A stretch of 64,000 nucleotides of DNA from Polyangiaceae bacterium (GTDB lineage Bacteria; Myxococcota_A; Polyangia; Polyangiales; Polyangiaceae): contig JAXLYR010000002.1 of NCBI GenBank assembly GCA_046351325.1, positions 560,334 through 624,333 of the forward strand, written 5' to 3'. Shown here piece by piece: positions 41,560 to 49,873 of the stretch; positions within the stretch are counted from its first letter, which is position 1, and the number at the start of each line of letters is the position of its first letter. The notes beneath the pieces are model-generated. The model made no database searches and had not been told where the DNA came from. It saw nothing but the letters and a program-made list of their open reading frames with translations. The translations under genes were made by a program, and so were the position numbers.

Positions 41560-41952
41560 GGACCGTCACGAATTGGACATGATTGGTCCGGAGGCCGTCA
41601 CCCGCCGCACGATCCGGACCTTGACGTCGTCATGATCGCCGACATTCAAGACAGCGCAGGCGGCGAGACCGCGCTCGTGACGACACCTACGCGGTGACGC
41701 TCGACGTCTCGCTCGGCGCGACCCCTCACGCGAGCTTCACGGACGTCGAGCAAACGAAGGTCGGGGCGTGCATCTCGATCGACGCGGGAGCGACCAAACA
41801 GTTGCCATCGCGGTCGTCGTGGGTCCTCACGACTGTCGCAGTCGCGGCGCTATGGGCCGCGCGTCGAGCCCGCCGGTCGAGGCCCGCGCGTGACGGCCAG
41901 TCGACCTGACCCTGCCAGCGCCCCGGTCGATCTCGAGTATGCTGGCCTCCTT

Positions 41953-42681
41953 ATGAGCCCTCGCGTGGTTGCCTGCTTCTTGATCCTGGGCGCAGGGTGC
42001 AACGGCGTCTTGGGGATGGATGAGGTCGAGCTGCGGAATGACGGCGGTGGTGGCGCTGGAGTTGGCGGCAATGGCGGCGGGCCTGGGGCTGGTGGCGATC
42101 AGGGCGTTGGTGGGCAAGGCGGCGCTATGGGCCCGACGCTCTGTCAGCCCATCCCAGCCGACAATATCGTGGTGGACGGGTCGTTCGAGCAGCCGATTGG
42201 ACAGTATTGGAGCGGGTACAACGCGCATGTTACCCAAATGCCGTTTACCGGTTCTGACAGCTGCGACGGTGACAACTATGTCAACATTCTCGACTTTGAC
42301 TACACTGCGGAGGCCTGGGGTTCGGGCGACAAGGAAGTGCTGAAAGCGGCCAATACCGATTGTGTCGAGTGGAGCTACTCGGCGCGCGCAGCCAGCCCGG
42401 ACGTCTATGTCTGGCTGACATTCGCGTTCGAGGGGACGCCCTACGTCGTGAACGATCTCACGGGGCAGAATGGCGTCTATATGCAGTCCCAGGCGTGGAC
42501 GCTCTATCACGGTGCGTGTCGGCTCACGCTGCCGGGCTCCATCGGTCACATCAACGTGTACGTCTCGCTCGACGAGGACCACGACGCGAACGATCCCGAC
42601 ATGATCGCGGACTTCGACTCGCTCGTTGTCCGCCCGATTCCTTGCACGGTGTCGACGCCGCCTTGCGACGTCGAGCCGTGA
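41953..42681 (+). CDS. Hypothetical lipoprotein with a Gly-rich linker
   Basis: MSPRVVACFLILGAGCNG then a poly-Gly region. Confidence 0.55.
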   Translation: MSPRVVACFLILGAGCNGVLGMDEVELRNDGGGGAGVGGNGGGPGAGGDQGVGGQGGAMGPTLCQPIPADNIVVDGSFEQPIGQYWSGYNAHVTQMPFTGSDSCDGDNYVNILDFDYTAEAWGSGDKEVLKAANTDCVEWSYSARAASPDVYVWLTFAFEGTPYVVNDLTGQNGVYMQSQAWTLYHGACRLTLPGSIGHINVYVSLDEDHDANDPDMIADFDSLVVRPIPCTVSTPPCDVEP

Positions 42682-42711: not shown

Positions 42712-43479
42712 CTACAGCATGAAGCCGGCGACGATCGCGCCGACTAGCATGAGCGCGCCGAACACGAGGAGCGCGCCGCCGAGCGTGCGCCTGCCTGTTC
42801 GTTGTTCGGTGAGCCCCGCTTCATCCGAGTCGAAGACTCGCACGCCGGCCCCCGCGCTCTCGAACAAGCCGAGCCCGTTTGGCGTCGGCGCGACCCAACC
42901 CACTACGCTGATGAGCTCTCCCGGCTCGATGCGTGTCTCCAAGACGGCCTCGATGTTCTCTCCGCTGCCACCGAGGCGCTGCCCCATGCTTCGCTGCTGC
43001 GCGGTGGTGAGCGGCCCGGCGAAGGCCCCGCCCACGACGATGAGTCCGCTGCGGTTCGTCCAATAGTATTGCGTCTTGACCACCGAGATCCTCGCGGTCG
43101 AGACCAAGAGCCACGCTGCGCCGTCGACGATGTAGAAGTCACGCTCGAGCCTCTCGACGGTGTGCAGCACGCGCCGAGCGACGAGCTGCGCTGCCGTCTC
43201 GTAGAAGACAGTCGGCACGGCCGCCGCAGGACTGAGCTCGACGCCGCGCGGGCCGGGCTGAGCCACGCCGCGGACCCGGACGCGCGTCCCTGGTCGCGCG
43301 GCCGAGAGCGGTGTCAGCGGGAGCTTCGCGTCTCGGACGAGGGCGCTCATGCCGCCGCCGAACATGATGAAGAGCCCGAACGCGGCGAGCGCGAGCCCCA
43401 TGATTGCGCCACCCACGCAGAGACCCATCAAGTCCCGCGCGGCCCCCGCCAAAGCCGTCATTCGAATGAAATACCTCAC
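42712..43479 (-). CDS. Hypothetical membrane protein
   Basis: N-terminal and C-terminal TM helices flank a soluble domain. 255 aa. Confidence 0.45.
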   Translation of the reverse strand: MRYFIRMTALAGAARDLMGLCVGGAIMGLALAAFGLFIMFGGGMSALVRDAKLPLTPLSAARPGTRVRVRGVAQPGPRGVELSPAAAVPTVFYETAAQLVARRVLHTVERLERDFYIVDGAAWLLVSTARISVVKTQYYWTNRSGLIVVGGAFAGPLTTAQQRSMGQRLGGSGENIEAVLETRIEPGELISVVGWVAPTPNGLGLFESAGAGVRVFDSDEAGLTEQRTGRRTLGGALLVFGALMLVGAIVAGFML

Positions 43480-43561: not shown

Positions 43562-44602
43562 ATGAGCAAGGCTGTTGTCATAGGCGGGGCGGGATTCATC
43601 GGGCGGCGACTCGTCGAGATGCTGGCTGGCAATGAGCCACACCCCGATTGGGCTCGCTTCGATCATGTCCACGTCGTGGACTTGGCGCCCGCGACCATCG
43701 CAGAAGGTGAAGCTCCGCGCGTCACCACCGCGAAGGCGGACGTGCGCTCCCACGACGATCTGCGGCGCGCGTTCGAAGGCGCGGACACCGTCTTTCATTT
43801 GGCGTCGGTCGTCGACGTCGGCTTGAAGAAGAGCGCGACGATCGAGCCGACGAACGTCGGCGGAGCGCGCAACGTCGTGGCTGCGGCGCGCGAGGCCGGG
43901 GTGCGAGCGCTCGTCTACACGAGCTCCGAGGACGTGTTGCTCTCGGAGATCCCCGTGCGCGGCGGCGACGAGACCATGCCTTATCCGGCGCGACCGATTC
44001 ACGACTACGTGCGGACCAAGATCGAGGGCGAGCGCATCGTCCTCGGCGCCGACGATCCGAGCGGCCTTCGCACGTTGGCGATCCGCCCCGTCCACGTGTA
44101 CGGGCCCCGCGATCCGCATGCGATCGTCACGAGCCTCCGCGCCTTCGCGAAGGGCTCGGTGCCGTTCCTCCTCGGGAACGGCGAGGCGCTCTTCGACGTC
44201 GTGTACGTCGACAACGTCGTCCACGCCCACCTACTCGCGGCGCGCGCGCTCCACGAGGCTCCCCATCGCGTCGCGGGCCGCCCCTACATCGTGAACGAGG
44301 ACCACGCGGTCAACTACTTCGAGTGGCTGCGTCCTTATGCCGCGCGCAAGAACGTGAAGATGCCTCGCTTGCGGCTCGGGCGCAGGCCGACCCACGCCCT
44401 CGCGCGGGCGATGGGCCTCGTTCATCGCGTGACCGGTCTCGAGGTTCCCTTCCATTCCTTTCACGCGCACGTCATCGGCGAGGATTTCTACTTCTCGTCG
44501 CGCCGAGCAAAGACGGAGCTCGGCTACACGCCGATCGTCTCCGTCGAGGACGCGCGGCGCCGCACGCTCGAGTGGCTCGATCACGTGGCGCTCGAGGGCT
44601 GA
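43562..44602 (+). CDS. NAD(P)-dependent epimerase/dehydratase (3-beta-HSD-like)
   Basis: VVIGGAGFIGRRLVEML Rossmann motif; YxxxK (YVRTK). Confidence 0.8.
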   Translation: MSKAVVIGGAGFIGRRLVEMLAGNEPHPDWARFDHVHVVDLAPATIAEGEAPRVTTAKADVRSHDDLRRAFEGADTVFHLASVVDVGLKKSATIEPTNVGGARNVVAAAREAGVRALVYTSSEDVLLSEIPVRGGDETMPYPARPIHDYVRTKIEGERIVLGADDPSGLRTLAIRPVHVYGPRDPHAIVTSLRAFAKGSVPFLLGNGEALFDVVYVDNVVHAHLLAARALHEAPHRVAGRPYIVNEDHAVNYFEWLRPYAARKNVKMPRLRLGRRPTHALARAMGLVHRVTGLEVPFHSFHAHVIGEDFYFSSRRAKTELGYTPIVSVEDARRRTLEWLDHVALEG

Positions 44603-44673
44603 GGATCGGATTCTCGTCGAAGGGCTGCGTCCTTTCCGCGAGGTCCCCGTCTTGAGGGCAGGAGACTACGAAG

Positions 44674-45501
44674 ATGAACGAGCAGACGAAGGATGAAGTT
44701 CGCGCCGCCGTGCGGGATCAATACGGCAAGGTCGCACGGCAGAACGCGACGGGCTGCGCGCCCAGCTGCTGCGGCAGCGGCGCGGACATGAGCTTGAAGC
44801 TCGGCTATTCGGCCGAGGATCTGGCGGCAGTCCCCGAGGGCGCGAACATGGGTCTCGGGTGCGGCAATCCGCAGGCGATCGCGGCCCTCAAGGCTGGCGA
44901 GACGGTCCTCGACCTCGGAGCAGGTGGTGGCTTCGATTGCTTCTTGGCGGCCAAACAGGTCGGTCCGACGGGCAAGGTGATCGGCGTCGACATGACACCC
45001 GACATGGTGTCGAAGGCCCGGGTCAACGCACAGAAGGTCGGCGCGACCAACGTCGAGTTCCGCCTCGGGGAGATCGAGCATCTGCCTGTCGCTGACAATA
45101 CTGTAGACGTCATCCTCTCGAACTGCGTCATCAACCTCAGCCCGGACAAGGGCGCCGTCTTCCGCGAGGCCTTTCGTGTCCTCAAGCCCGGCGGTCGTCT
45201 CGCGATCTCGGACGTCGTCAAATTGAAGGCTCTGCCCGAAGCACTCGAGCGCGACATGGCGGCGCTCACGGGGTGCGTGTCGGGGGCCGCGACGGTCGAC
45301 GACGTGCGAGCCATGCTCGCTGCGGCAGGCTTCGGCACTGTCGTGGTCGACGTCCGGCCCGAGAGCCGCGAGTTCATCCGCGAGTGGATACCGGACTCCA
45401 ACGTCGAGGACTTCGTCGCCTCGGCTGCCATCGAGGCCGTGAAGCCAGGTGGGAAGTCCTGCTGTGGCCCCTCGTGTTGCGAGCCCGGAGCCTCGGCGTG
45501 A
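44674..45501 (+). CDS. arsM: Arsenite S-adenosylmethionine methyltransferase
   Basis: SAM-binding motif VLDLGAGGG. Conserved Cys signatures [25 protein letters not shown]-terminal CCGPSCC. Confidence 0.8.
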
Positions 45502-46115
45502 TCGACGCCGCGGCGCGCGGTGCATGGCGCGAGCTCGAGACTCGCCTCAGGCCGTTCATCGCGCGGCGCGTGCCCACGGCGAGTGATGTCGATGACGTTG
45601 TACAAGATATTTTCTTGCGAATGCAGCGCGGCTTGGGTGGTCTTCGCGACGACGAGCGCTTCGGGCCCTGGGTGTACCAGGTCGCGCGGAGCGCCATCGT
45701 CGAGCATCGACGCTCCCTCGCGCGCCACCCCATCGCCGAGGGCGTCACGGTGGAAGAGCCCGTCGAGGACGGTGACGATCGCGCGGTCGAGGAGGAGCTC
45801 GCGCTCCACGTCGCGCCGTTCGTCGCGATGCTGCCGTCGCCCTACCGCGAGGCCCTCACCCTCGTCGAGCTCGAGGGCCTCACGCAGAAGCAGGCGGCCG
45901 AGATGCTCGGCGTTTCGCTCTCGGGGATGAAGTCGCGCGTGCAGCGGGGGCGCGTGCAGCTGCGCCGCGCCCTCGAGGATTGCTGTCACATCGCGCTCGA
46001 CGTTCGAGGTCGCGTGGTCGCCTGCGAACCGCGACCGGATGGGCGTCTGCCGAGCGGGTGCTGCGAAGCGACTCGGTGCGCTGCGAGCGATTCACCCTCG
46101 AGCCGCGCGCGTTGA
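45498..46115 (+). CDS. ECF sigma factor with a C-terminal Cys-rich extension (CorE/ECF44-like)
   Basis: Sigma-2 ([10 protein letters not shown]…) and sigma-4 ([25 protein letters not shown]) regions, then [36 protein letters not shown] start overlaps the arsM TGA. Confidence 0.7.
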
Positions 46116-46390
46116 TTGGCCCCGCGCTCGTGGGTCGCGCAGTCTACCAGAAGTCGCCGGAGAGCCGCGGGTAGCTTGCACACCTCGCAAGCAATCAGCC
46201 TTCTCTTCTAGGTCGAGACCAGTGAGCGGCGACGTGAACCGCACTCGGGTTTTGTCTTTTTCGAGTTCGCAACGGGAATGTTTGCGGAGTGAGGAGCCTT
46301 GCCCTGTACGATCCCTCCTACCGGTCCAGTCTTCCGCCGAGTGGCCCCGAAAACACAGCTGGGTCGCTTCCGCGCAGAAAAGGAAGGGCT

Positions 46391-46750
46391 ATGAACATCT
46401 CGATCACGTTCCGGCATATGGATGGCACGGATGCGGTCAAAAACTATGCGAACGAGAAGATCTCTCGGCTGCAGAAGTTCCTGCGTCAGGCGATGACGGC
46501 GCAAGTCACGCTCTCCGTCGAGGGCTTGGAGCACATCGCTGACGTGCGCATCCACTCGGGGAGCGCGACGTTCCACGCGAACGAGCGCAAGGAGGACATG
46601 TACGCTTCGATCGACCTCGTCCTCGACAAGCTGGAACGTCAGATCCACGCCCAGAAGGGGGCGAACGTCGCAAAGAAGCACGGTGGGATGAGCGCTGGTG
46701 AGTTCGCGGTCGCGGTCGAACGCGAGTCGCAGCGCGGCACGCGCGGCTGA
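46391..46750 (+). CDS. hpf: Ribosome hibernation-promoting factor / sigma-54 modulation protein
   Basis: MNISITFRHMDGTDAVKNYANEKISRLQKF. AGGAAGG RBS. Confidence 0.85.
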   Translation: MNISITFRHMDGTDAVKNYANEKISRLQKFLRQAMTAQVTLSVEGLEHIADVRIHSGSATFHANERKEDMYASIDLVLDKLERQIHAQKGANVAKKHGGMSAGEFAVAVERESQRGTRG

Positions 46751-47005
46751 GTTCTTCGGCAGAGTTTTTCGGCTGAGTTTCTCGTAAGTGGCCGTGGCCT
46801 TCGCTGGCGCGAGCGAACAGGACCGGTGAGGAGGTCGAGCCTGCGAGGGCTCGCGGCCACAGCAGGGTAGACACAGCAGGGTGGACGCAAGACGCGTCGT
46901 TCAGCGGGGGGCGCCGAACGACGCGGGCAGTTGTCCCGTCGGTGCGGGGCGATCGCAAAAGGCAGTTCGTGTTGTGGCGTGTGCTAAGGTTCCGGAGCCT
47001 TAGCC

Positions 47006-47497
47006 ATGCTGGTCGTCGACATCCTCAGTCCGAGTCGAGTGTCGGTCGCAGGTCTCGGTGCCGGCGCGAAAGGTGCGGACGTCGAGACCAAGCAAGCCGT
47101 CCTGCATCGGCTCGCGGAGCTCCTCTGCTCCGGGGAGAGCGCCCTCGATCCGGTGAAGATCGAGCAGATGCTCCTCAAGCGAGAGGAACAACAATCCACC
47201 GGCGTCGGCGGTGGTGTCGCCATCCCCCACGCCGCGATCGAGGAGCTCGATCACATCGTCGGTGCGGTCCTGCTCTGCCCGAAACCCGTGGGTTTCGATG
47301 CGATCGATGGTCTGCCCGTCTCGATCTTCTTCGCGGTCATCGGTCCGCGTCGCGCGGTCGGCGAGCACCTGAAAACGCTGGCGCGCGTGTCGCGCCTGCT
47401 GCGGGACGACCATTTCCGCAAGCGGCTCGTCTCGGCCGTCGACGGTCGTACGGCGTTCGAGCTCATCGCCAGTGAAGAGGGGCGCCCCGCGGTGTGA
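47006..47497 (+). CDS. ptsN: PTS IIA-Ntr (nitrogen-regulatory EIIA)
   Basis: …HRLAELL…VGGGVAIPHAAIEELDHIVGAVLL. Confidence 0.85.
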   Translation: MLVVDILSPSRVSVAGLGAGAKGADVETKQAVLHRLAELLCSGESALDPVKIEQMLLKREEQQSTGVGGGVAIPHAAIEELDHIVGAVLLCPKPVGFDAIDGLPVSIFFAVIGPRRAVGEHLKTLARVSRLLRDDHFRKRLVSAVDGRTAFELIASEEGRPAV

Positions 47498-47570
47498 TGC
47501 GGGGCTCGCGTTCGCTTCACGACGTTCTCGCGCTCAGTCTCCCGCTTCTTGGAAAGGCAGCCTGGAAGCC

Positions 47571-48929
47571 ATGAAATCCGACGACGATCCTCCGTCCCGG
47601 GCGGCGCCCTCGAGCTCGAAGAACAGCACGCCCGGCGGGCAAGTGTCCTACGACTGGCCCGACGACGAGACCTTCGCGGGGCCGGCTCCATCCGAGTCTC
47701 CCGCGAAGCGTCCGCTCATGTCGGCGCGCGCGCTGCTCGACGAGACGCTCCACGGTCTGTCGCTGGCCCTCCTCGCCGGGAGAGCCGGTCTTGATCGACC
47801 CATCGCGCACACCCGAATCCAGAAGAGCGGGCTCGCGCTCGCGGGGCACTTCCACGGCATCGTGCCCTCGCGCATCCAGATCCTCGGTCAGACCGAGCAA
47901 TCGTTCGTCGATCGGTTGGAGCCGAACGCTCGCGAGCGCGCGCTCGCCGGCTTCTTCGGGCTCGGCCTCAGCTGCGTGGTCCTCACGGGTGAGCTCGGGC
48001 GCGCGGCGCCCAAAATCATCGAGCGCGCCGACGTGACCGACACACCTCTTCTGCACGCACCGGAGCGATCGAGCCTGACGATCACCTCGCTCCACGCGCT
48101 CCTCGATGAGCGGCTCGCGCCTCGCAAGCGCCTTCACGGCGTGCTCATCGACGTGTTCGGCGTCGGCCTCTTCTTGATGGGAGGCAGCGGCGTCGGCAAG
48201 AGCGAGTGCGCGCTCGAGCTCGTGATGCGTGGTCACCGCCTCGTCGCCGACGACGTCGTCGAGTGCGACTTCCGTCCTCCGGGGATGGTCTTCGGCGCGC
48301 CGGCGAAGCTCCTGCGACACCACCTCGAGGTTCGCGGTCTCGGCATCCTCAACATCAAGGATCTCTTCGGTGTGACGGCGATCCGCGAGCGCAAGCGCGT
48401 CGACGTTGTCGTGCGCCTCGTCGACGAAGCGAGCGCCGAAGCAGACTTCGATCGGCTCGGGCTCGACGAGCGATTCCACACGATCCTCGGCGTGTCGATC
48501 CCCGAGCTCGTCGTGCCTGTGCGACCCGGTCGCGATATGGCCTCCATCCTCGAGGTCGCGGCTCGCAACGAGCTGCTGAAGAACGCGGGACACCACGCTG
48601 CGCGCGAGCTCTTCGGCGCGATCGAGACCCAGATCGCGACGGGCGCCCCGCGTGAGCCCATGCTTCGACTCGACGCGAGCGTGCCGTCCTCGACGGTCAC
48701 GCCTGCGACAGCGCGTACGCCGATCGCGCACGACGCCGAGGGCGAGCGGCTCCCGCTTCGACAGGCCGCGGCCTTCACGCAGCGCGGCTCTCCGCTTCGT
48801 CCGCGCGAGAGCGAGTTCGGCATGCCTGCGGTGCGCGCGCCGCGCACCGACGAGTCTTCCGCGCCTCCGCCGGTCGGCCCGCACCAGGGCCGGCTCGGCC
48901 CCCTCGGCGGCGGCAGGGAACGCAAATGA
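47571..48929 (+). CDS. hprK: HPr kinase/phosphorylase with an N-terminal Pro/Ser-rich extension and a C-terminal low-complexity extension
   Basis: LIDVFGVGLFLMGGSGVGKSECALELVMRGHRLVADDVV. Alternative start at 47718 (MSARALLDE…). Confidence 0.8.
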   Translation: MKSDDDPPSRAAPSSSKNSTPGGQVSYDWPDDETFAGPAPSESPAKRPLMSARALLDETLHGLSLALLAGRAGLDRPIAHTRIQKSGLALAGHFHGIVPSRIQILGQTEQSFVDRLEPNARERALAGFFGLGLSCVVLTGELGRAAPKIIERADVTDTPLLHAPERSSLTITSLHALLDERLAPRKRLHGVLIDVFGVGLFLMGGSGVGKSECALELVMRGHRLVADDVVECDFRPPGMVFGAPAKLLRHHLEVRGLGILNIKDLFGVTAIRERKRVDVVVRLVDEASAEADFDRLGLDERFHTILGVSIPELVVPVRPGRDMASILEVAARNELLKNAGHHAARELFGAIETQIATGAPREPMLRLDASVPSSTVTPATARTPIAHDAEGERLPLRQAAAFTQRGSPLRPRESEFGMPAVRAPRTDESSAPPPVGPHQGRLGPLGGGRERK

Positions 48930-49873
48930 ACGAGAGTCCGTCGAGTGAGCGCAGGAGAACCCACGTCGTGGTCGTGACGGGTCTCTCCGGGGCTGGCAGA
49001 TCGACGGCGATGGCGGCCCTCGAGGATCTCGGGTTCTACAGCATCGAGAACGCTCCGCCGTCGGTCATCGTCGAGGCCATCGAGGCCTGCGAGCAAGCGG
49101 GCGTTCGTCGCATCTCGCTCGGCATCGGCAACTCCGTTCCGGCGTTCATCGAGAGCACCGCGGATGCCGTCGCGAAGCTCGCCCCACAATCGAATCGACG
49201 CGTCACGACGCTCTTCCTCGACGCGACCGATGAGGTCCTGCTCCGCCGCTTCAGCGAGACGCGGCGGCCTCACCCTGCGTTCTCACGCGAGCAAGACGCG
49301 GCCGGCGTGCTCGAGGGAATTCGCATCGAGCGTCGTAGGTTGTCACCGCTGCGTGCGCTGTCTCCGCTCGTCGTCGACACCAGCATGCTGACCGTGCACG
49401 AGCTGCGTCGTCACGTGTTCGCCTTGTTGCGCCCCGAAGCCGGCGCGCACCAGATGGTCACGCGCGTCGTGTCCTTCGGCTTCAAGTATGGATTGCCGAG
49501 CGACGCTGACCTGGTGTTCGACGTCCGTTTCTTGGATAATCCTCACTTCGTAGCGGAGCTTCGGCCGCTGACCGGCCAAGATCGGCGCGTCTCCGACTAC
49601 GTGCTTCAGGCCAAAGGGGCGGGGGACTTCGTGGATCGAACGGCCGAGCTCTTGAACACACTGCTCCCTCGTTACGAGGAAGAGGGAAAGAGCTACCTCA
49701 CCATCGCGGTCGGTTGTACGGGCGGGCGTCATCGCTCGGTCGCTCTCGCCGAAGCGATCGCCGAGCGGCTTCGTCGCGCTGCAGCCGATCCGGGCGCGCC
49801 GGGCGGGCGCGTCACCATCGTTCACCGCGACATCGAGCGCGCCGACAAGCACATACGGGAGTCGGCGCCGTGA
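48926..49873 (+). CDS. rapZ: RNase adaptor protein RapZ (YhbJ)
   Basis: VVVTGLSGAGRSTAMAALEDLGFYSIENAPP. ATGA overlap with hprK. Confidence 0.85.
   Translation: MNESPSSERRRTHVVVVTGLSGAGRSTAMAALEDLGFYSIENAPPSVIVEAIEACEQAGVRRISLGIGNSVPAFIESTADAVAKLAPQSNRRVTTLFLDATDEVLLRRFSETRRPHPAFSREQDAAGVLEGIRIERRRLSPLRALSPLVVDTSMLTVHELRRHVFALLRPEAGAHQMVTRVVSFGFKYGLPSDADLVFDVRFLDNPHFVAELRPLTGQDRRVSDYVLQAKGAGDFVDRTAELLNTLLPRYEEEGKSYLTIAVGCTGGRHRSVALAEAIAERLRRAAADPGAPGGRVTIVHRDIERADKHIRESAP

Follow-up and report, generated by a model that had tools for sequence, protein, structure and literature searches.

Extracytoplasmic function (ECF) sigma factors with an on-board metal sensor include CorE and CorE2 of Myxococcus xanthus. 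Both lack a functional anti-sigma factor and end in a short cysteine-rich extension right after region 4. This extension is required for activity, and the arrangement of its cysteines sets the metal specificity (PMC4937300, PMC8999054). In addition, every one of the 67 CorE-like sigmas has a CxC motif between the sigma2 and sigma4.2 regions, an essential element of both CorE and CorE2 (PMC4937300). The 64,000-nucleotide stretch of a Polyangiaceae genome analysed here (the window) encodes a sigma factor from the same phylum, Myxococcota, which likewise has a cysteine-rich extension after region 4 and no conserved anti-sigma partner, and whose gene overlaps that of a predicted arsenite methyltransferase, arsM. 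The gene pair, its promoter motif and its distribution in related genomes are best explained by a positively autoregulated arsenic-response cassette, in which the sigma factor would be gated through its own cysteine tail; we put the probability of this reading at roughly 55%.

Other described systems share parts of this design. The similarity of SigZ of Bacillus subtilis (TIGR02959 and NF007215; ECF238 subgroup 9) to the window sigma factor extends through CC-x4-D-x-(R/Y)G and on into the tail; SigZ lacks an anti-sigma factor, and its function is essentially unknown (PMC7826278). OrbS of Burkholderia cenocepacia is an ECF sigma factor with its own C-terminal cysteine-rich extension, proposed as a direct metal sensor (PMC9023288), but it belongs to a different ECF group (iron-starvation), is inhibited by metal and has a regulon of siderophore genes. 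According to the literature, genes for arsenic resistance and arsenic methylation are controlled by ArsR-family repressors. In such operons, including those with ArsR–ArsM fusions (ArsRM, PMC10190100), the regulator of the detoxification genes is likewise a cysteine-thiolate protein; ArsR, however, is a repressor released by As(III), whereas control of the window cassette would be positive and would rely on a dedicated sigma factor and promoter. No description of an arsM-linked or arsenic-responsive ECF sigma factor was found in the literature searched; the ECF Hub subgroup pages, which lie outside that search, may record the neighbourhood. The sole mention of arsM together with a sigma factor found there concerns non-RpoD expression of arsM in Cupriavidus. 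The cassette looks like an undescribed, ArsR-independent way of switching on arsenic defence. Relative to the known ECF sigma factors with on-board sensors, the novelty would lie in the effector proposed, together with a promoter and an arsenic regulon that are both defined.

A conserved gene pair

The features of the cassette are the following.

44626–44632 (+): −35-like element TGCGTCC, matched exactly nowhere else in the 64-kb window
44648–44653 (+): −10-like element CGTCTT, 15 nt after TGCGTCC, with conserved spacing and position
44660–44664 (+): Shine–Dalgarno sequence AGGAG for arsM, identified in the sequence, with AGGAGG-like sequences at the same place in related loci
44674–45501 (+): arsM, predicted arsenite S-adenosylmethionine methyltransferase, 275 amino acids (NF008823; Pfam Methyltransf_31)
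45487–45490 (+): GGAG ribosome-binding site for the sigma gene, within the 3′ end of arsM and recurring in related loci
45498–45501 (+): GTGA start/stop overlap of arsM and the sigma gene, with the same RTGA shared by 55 or more of 78 related loci
45498–46115 (+): gene for an ECF (group 4) sigma factor, SigZ-like, 205 amino acids (Pfam, TIGR02937, TIGR02959)
45981–46064 (+): conserved cysteine-rich C-terminal extension, residues 162–189 (24-sequence alignment)
46065–46112 (+): non-conserved C-terminal appendix including C194, absent or unrelated in most homologues

The initial annotation had placed at 44674–46115 an arsM gene translationally coupled through GTGA to an ECF sigma gene, and both reading frames and their overlap are confirmed. 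The arsM frame opens with ATG at 44674 and closes with TGA at 45501, and the GTG start of the sigma gene (45498–45500) overlaps this stop codon (45499–45501); the sigma frame ends in phase with TGA at 46113–46115. An identical 205-residue protein with the same start (P0001) is annotated in a Polyangiaceae metagenome-assembled genome (MAG) at NCBI under the bare name 'sigma-70 family', and an N-terminus M-I-D/E is common to the sigma homologues. The GGAG of the sigma gene sits 7 nt before its GTG; in most related loci CCGGAG or GGAG lies 7–10 nt before the sigma start.

When one genome per species was scanned, 121 species turned out to encode the sigma subfamily; the locus counts given here refer to the best 80 loci. 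These come nearly all from Polyangia or other Myxococcota (Sorangium, Minicystis, Labilithrix, Nannocystis and many MAGs), and the rest from a few MAGs labelled Planctomycetales, Binatia or Pseudomonadota. The gene immediately upstream of the sigma gene is arsM in 78 of the 80. One of the two exceptions has only 63 contig bases upstream of the sigma gene. The other, a Haliangium sp. MAG (L058, 4816–5555), is a natural arsM deletion that retains the regulatory part: a 34-codon remnant with a still ArsM-like start is preceded by the promoter and followed by an ATGA overlap with the sigma gene. The four-base RTGA overlap is exact in 55 of the 78 pairs, and in about seven more if N-terminal indels are allowed; with such recurrence, the overlap is not due to chance. 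Linkage of the two genes extends down to about 39% sigma identity (L081, L082 and L083).

After clustering of all open reading frames (ORFs) flanking the 80 loci, arsM and the sigma gene are the only universal genes. A conserved anti-sigma factor or other partner gene, considered as a candidate, was rejected since none recurs. The recurrent neighbours are arsR (22 loci), acr3 (18), arsC (16–19), arsA (9), arsD (8), arsN (5) and an aquaglyceroporin gene (5). In the window, tblastn with ArsR, Acr3, ArsC, ArsA, ArsD and ArsN queries from related loci returned no match. The earlier view that ArsR is not the local partner is thus borne out by the absence of an ArsR homologue from the 64 kb. On this ground, and with arsR beside just 22 of the 80 related loci, the unit does not qualify as an ArsR-regulated operon.

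The methyltransferase

The arsM product scores 362 bits against the NCBIfam model NF008823 (cut-off 263), which covers residues 4–259 of 275. It has the class I fold for binding S-adenosylmethionine (Pfam Methyltransf_31, Methyltransf_11 and Methyltransf_25), with the motif VLDLGAGGG. Residues C33, C63, C151 and C201 correspond in the alignment to cysteines of algal ArsM proteins of known structure (4fr0, 4kw7 and 5evj); C63 lies in GCGN, C151 in SNCVINLS (SNCV.NLS) and C201 in GCVSGA (GC..GA). In CmArsM, the four conserved cysteines are numbered C44, C72, C174 and C224. Vicinal cysteine pairs occur near both ends of the protein (C32/C33, C263/C264 and C268/C269). The enzyme is predicted to be a canonical ArsM with its catalytic cysteines intact.

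That the methyltransferase acts mainly on a non-arsenic substrate, such as another metalloid or a thiol compound, and that the cassette is not an arsenic system at all, is highly improbable. The idea draws on NF008823 being a subfamily-level model, on the other substrates of related methyltransferases and on an arsenite-methylating activity that is a prediction. It fits poorly with a score far above the cut-off over the full length, with the alignment of all four As(III)-binding or catalytic cysteines to solved ArsM structures and with the frequency of canonical ars genes as neighbours.

A conserved motif of ECF-promoter type

Lining up the 200 nt upstream of arsM in related loci gave a bipartite motif, cTGCGTCCTTt-N12-CGTCTT, present in 73 of 75 arsM upstream regions. 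The distance from TGCGTCC to CGTC is 15 nt in 71 of these 73. Over 71 aligned upstream regions, the −35-like positions are near invariant (1.8–2.0 bits each), while the spacer and flanks carry little information. The motif typically ends about 23 nt before the ATG of arsM (mainly 20–25; 22 nt in the window), and just an AGGAGG-like ribosome-binding site lies between. On both strands of the 80 loci and the window (777,558 bases), the strict motif has 74 matches, all on the sigma strand, against 3.7 expected. In the 64-kb window no second exact copy was found, the one upstream of arsM being the sole match. Where arsR-acr3-arsC lie upstream, the arsM–sigma pair still has its own motif.

Known ECF promoters of B. 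subtilis read TGAAAC-N16-CGTA for sigma-W and TGCAAC-N17-CGTC for sigma-M, and that of sigma-X is likewise of ECF type. Taken as TGCGTC-N16-CGTC, the motif has this ECF-promoter geometry. A conserved motif upstream of a sigma factor's own operon is an accepted route to cognate autoregulated ECF promoters (PMC3817407). No sigma-70-type promoter was detected in 44300–46500, including the 71-bp gap upstream of arsM, and a terminator scan of the same interval gave one chance-level candidate only, inside arsM.

A few motif matches fall inside the sigma coding sequence (L005 at 3390; L022, L049 and L067 at 5050). They coincide with the codons for LRPFIARRV and were set aside as probable coding coincidences; the window sigma gene has no match at these codons. 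A second copy of the motif is found just after the sigma gene in Sorangium cellulosum So0157-2 (L048, 5718–9029), where it precedes a gene for a 181-residue multi-pass membrane protein, present in four loci and matching no Pfam family, and then arsR-arsD-arsA.

The motif could also be the operator of another transcription factor, the sigma factor being a co-transcribed passenger with targets elsewhere. GCGTCC and CCGTCT are indeed CGTC-containing direct repeats 20 bp (two helical turns) apart, and the link between sigma factor and motif is comparative rather than experimental. A motif that ends ~22 nt before the ATG, with just a Shine–Dalgarno sequence in between, must however overlap the core promoter, and 44300–46500 offers no sigma-70-like hexamers to serve in its place. 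The motif moreover accompanies the sigma family in all gene orders observed and occurs with or without a neighbouring arsR, and conservation extends to no other regulator. An operator function is therefore very unlikely.

Motif, sigma factor and targets in metagenomes

Public metagenome contigs were scanned with the pattern TGCGTCCTTT-N12-CGTCTT, which returned at least 120 stretches with at least 125 instances. Among the 125 instances listed, arsM starts just downstream of the motif in 51, a sigma gene of the window family adjoins it in 47, and one or both of these genes stand beside it in 68. The order promoter–arsM–sigma recurs among the matches listed. Other arrangements are sigma–promoter–arsM (L083, L096, L167 and L199), promoter–sigma without arsM (L090, L092, L112, L119 and L152) and sigma–promoter–other gene (L121, L123, L132 and L172). 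In comparative work, co-occurrence of motif and sigma factor in several gene orders is the usual mark of an ECF sigma factor that regulates itself. The earlier proposal of an autoregulated arsM–sigma operon gains comparative support from this signature, together with the conserved pair and the ECF-type motif.

The genes behind the motif include ArsI/CadI enzymes (143–156 bits, cut-off 116), ArsN2 (159.5 bits, cut-off 125), an ArsP_1-family permease, cysteine-rich DUF2703 proteins, a weakly ArsO-like flavoprotein and an ABC transporter. This regulon content points to arsenic and, in the relatives, to organoarsenicals via ArsI, ArsP and ArsN2. The remaining instances comprise an unrelated repeat family, truncated contigs and presumably chance matches. 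The repeats, of the TTTGCG type and arranged in tandem (e.g. TGCGTCCTTTGCGAAAACTTTGCGTCTTTGCGGTTAAAAA), were dismissed as unrelated; they lie in metagenome contigs of lower GC content, and neither arsM nor a sigma gene is nearby (L085, L087, L091, L100, L103, L108, L111, L118, L122, L133, L168, L192 and others).

In L098, L104, L132 and L148, DUF2703 proteins with very cysteine-rich tails are encoded directly behind the motif and beside a sigma gene of the family. They match PF10865 and, weakly, the NCBIfam model 'DF family (seleno)protein', and are candidate members of an arsenic or metalloid regulon. In three further stretches (L136, L147 and L203), two copies of the motif lie 269 nt apart, the first before a gene for an 84-residue small membrane protein without family match and the second before arsM.

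The same gene orders bear on a different role for ArsM, that of a regulatory partner. ArsM might hold or modify the sigma factor in the manner of an anti-sigma factor, or hand over arsenic to it via cysteine-rich termini, with translational coupling fixing the stoichiometry. The near-obligate pair with its conserved start/stop overlap, the vicinal cysteines at both ends of ArsM and the lack of any other conserved candidate regulator would all suit such a partnership. Yet there are related systems in which the sigma gene precedes both promoter and arsM, and others in which related sigma factors control genes for DUF2703 proteins, an ArsP-type permease, ArsI or an ABC transporter without any arsM. 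The Haliangium locus lost arsM and kept promoter and sigma gene, and stop/start overlaps are frequent in ordinary operons. A partner role of ArsM is accordingly judged quite unlikely.

The sigma factor and its family

The window sigma factor consists of Sigma70_r2 (PF04542, residues 12–76) and Sigma70_r4_2 (PF08281, residues 109–155), with neither sigma3 nor sigma1. With 68 bits against TIGR02937 (cut-off 42.9), it qualifies as an ECF (group 4) sigma factor. It scores just under both curated cut-offs for SigZ, at 163.5 bits for TIGR02959 (cut-off 168.65) and 167.2 bits for NF007215 (cut-off 212), and cannot be named a SigZ equivalog. The next-best NCBIfam family reaches 73.7 bits, so that the SigZ models lead by about 90 bits. 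A HMMER search of 1.84 billion representatives gave 286 clusters at E ≤ 1e-30, of which the 140 nearest 50%-identity representatives were aligned. The exact sequence of the window sigma factor had no match in the contig index searched.

Both SigZ and CorE2 have been placed in the merged group ECF238, the hallmarks of which are a short C-terminal extension, rich in cysteine and ~20 residues long, and the absence of an anti-sigma gene from the neighbourhood (PMC7826278). According to a later review, about 85% of ECF238 members are without CxC (PMC8999054). The window sigma factor agrees with these descriptors, since the cysteine-rich extension is present and no anti-sigma gene is conserved across the 80 loci; membership of ECF238 would follow from the similarity to SigZ only. 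The linker CxC between sigma2 and sigma4 occurs in none of the 140 aligned representatives, and no cysteine of any kind is found in this linker in the window sigma factor or its close homologues. The initial annotation had called the protein a CorE-like (ECF44) sigma factor. Its cysteine-rich C-terminal domain and the loose ECF238 placement agree with that name; strict membership was rejected, as the linker CxC, essential in CorE, is missing and SigZ is the best-scoring family. The term 'CorE-like' thus applies only loosely, because the linker CxC is missing while SigZ and CorE2 share ECF238.

The cysteine-rich tail

An alignment of 24 homologues shows no variation at C162, C163, D168, R170, G171, R172 and C188, and conservation of at least 90% at C176 and C189. 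Five conserved cysteines therefore lie within residues 162–189, immediately after region 4, as CC/C/CC, compared with six-cysteine patterns in CorE (the CorE domain being compared by its published description). The cysteine-rich tail announced by the initial annotation is real in this respect, but the last cysteine that it quoted, C194, is not conserved, nor are the last 16 residues of the protein. Across the 140 representatives, the general family tail reads CC-x4-D-x-RG, then Cys/Tyr/Phe-E-P-R, then a terminal CC, CxC or CxxC.

Some arsM-linked members depart from this ending. In L026, L047, L072, L076 (sigma from ~5001), L183 and P0121, the sigma ORF does not stop after the first CC...C; other residues take the place of the terminal CC, and the frame runs on into a TauD/TfdA Fe(II)/2-oxoglutarate dioxygenase domain (PF02668); P0121 has 538 residues. 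In a few other loci, a separate gene of ~334 codons that looks similar lies just downstream, e.g. in L061 at 1197–2201.

How the cassette may work

In the proposed mechanism, the ECF promoter TGCGTCC-N15-CGTCTT (44626–44653) would drive a short-leader arsM–sigma transcript, and the sigma factor, translationally coupled to ArsM via GTGA, would recognize the promoter of its own operon. A self-activating sigma factor without anti-sigma factor needs a post-translational gate, for which the cysteine tail is the only conserved candidate. The gate would consist of the vicinal CC after region 4, the usually present middle cysteine and the terminal CC or CxC. Vicinal cysteine pairs with a third thiol are classical As(III) ligands in ArsR and ArsD. 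The tail may thus bind a trivalent arsenical, either As(III) or the methylated product MAs(III), and gating would be analogous to that exerted by Cu or Cd/Zn on the cysteine-rich domain of CorE and CorE2. The activated sigma factor would raise the level of ArsM and of itself. With As(III) as inducer, methylation by ArsM would remove As(III) and close a negative loop; with MAs(III), the circuit would be a feed-forward loop. Arsenic would be the signal, read directly by the tail and passed to the promoter by the same protein. In contrast to CorE and CorE2, the effector would be a metalloid, arsM is the target, and the operon that holds the sigma gene has its own promoter motif in front.

Several observations weigh against this reading. 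The CC...CC tail is also present in relatives unlinked to arsM, such as the SigZ-like L084, and is thus not arsenic-specific. Some arsM-linked members have Tyr, Trp or Phe in place of the middle cysteine (C176); L084, which has no arsM linkage, has Tyr at this position. The CorE mechanism cannot be transferred unchanged to a protein that lacks the linker CxC on which CorE and CorE2 depend. The gene corE2 is reported not to be upregulated by metal (PMC4937300), so that autoregulation would differ from the characterized relatives. An AlphaFold2 model built with 24 close homologues has a mean predicted local distance difference test (pLDDT) score of 66, with residues 164–205 below 50, and gives no structural support for a metal site. 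Finally, the recovery of arsM in the metagenome scan is partly circular: the search pattern itself goes back to sequences upstream of arsM, which leaves just the targets other than arsM and the alternative gene orders as independent.

In view of the first of these points, the tail may sense something else. The sigma factor would still autoregulate its operon, with the tail responding to thiol or redox stress or to another soft metal (Zn, Cd, Cu or Sb), or forming a structural Zn site, and arsenic would be indirect or irrelevant. The generality of the CC...CC tail in the SigZ/ECF238-type family is in keeping with this, as are the responses of characterized relatives to Cu or Cd/Zn (PMC4937300) and the presence of ArsI/CadI-family and DUF2703 targets, which are not strictly arsenic-specific. 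On the other hand, the target that is conserved, ArsM, is of canonical type and has all its catalytic cysteines, many loci have the module inside arsR-acr3-arsC-arsD-arsA islands, the other targets include ArsN2 and an ArsP-type permease, and an autoregulated sigma factor without anti-sigma factor requires a specific gate. A non-arsenic signal is judged unlikely.

The arsenic-gated cassette has a stronger form, in which the sigma factor itself is the arsenic receptor, i.e. a one-protein sensor and transcription initiator whose promoter recognition is switched on when As(III) or methylarsenite binds the tail. The window protein would then represent a widespread metalloid-gated ECF family with a dedicated promoter and regulons of arsM, arsI, arsN2, arsP-type permeases and DUF2703 genes. 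We regard this proposal as tentative, with the odds somewhat against it. If correct, the protein would be the first arsenic regulator of its kind to act positively and independently of ArsR.

Should an autoregulated cassette with an arsenical-sensing sigma tail be confirmed, it would add a second, positive control logic for arsenic genes, in which the sigma factor is amplified together with ArsM. It would also extend the ECF sigma factors with on-board metal sensors (CorE, CorE2 and OrbS) to a metalloid and suggest a role for relatives of SigZ. The compact promoter–sigma pair, as predicted from sequence, could if it works be used as an orthogonal arsenic biosensor. The motif itself is a means to find more arsenic-related genes, and DUF2703 proteins, the small membrane protein and TauD-like dioxygenases appear beside it.

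Genomic surroundings in the window

In the window the cassette stands alone, between a 3-beta-HSD/epimerase gene (43562–44602) and the hpf-ptsN-hprK-rapZ cluster, where it appears to have been inserted. Base composition gives no sign of recent transfer, as the GC content and the GC content at third codon positions (GC3) of the module equal those of the neighbouring genes. The genes on the downstream side (46391–49873, forward strand) are housekeeping genes, with hpf (Ribosomal_S30AE), ptsN (PTS EIIA-2), hprK and rapZ, and have no relation to arsenic. Upstream of the epimerase gene lie two ORFs with no Pfam match, at 41890–42681 (forward strand, 263 residues) and 42712–43479 (reverse strand, 255 residues), the latter with the look of a membrane protein.

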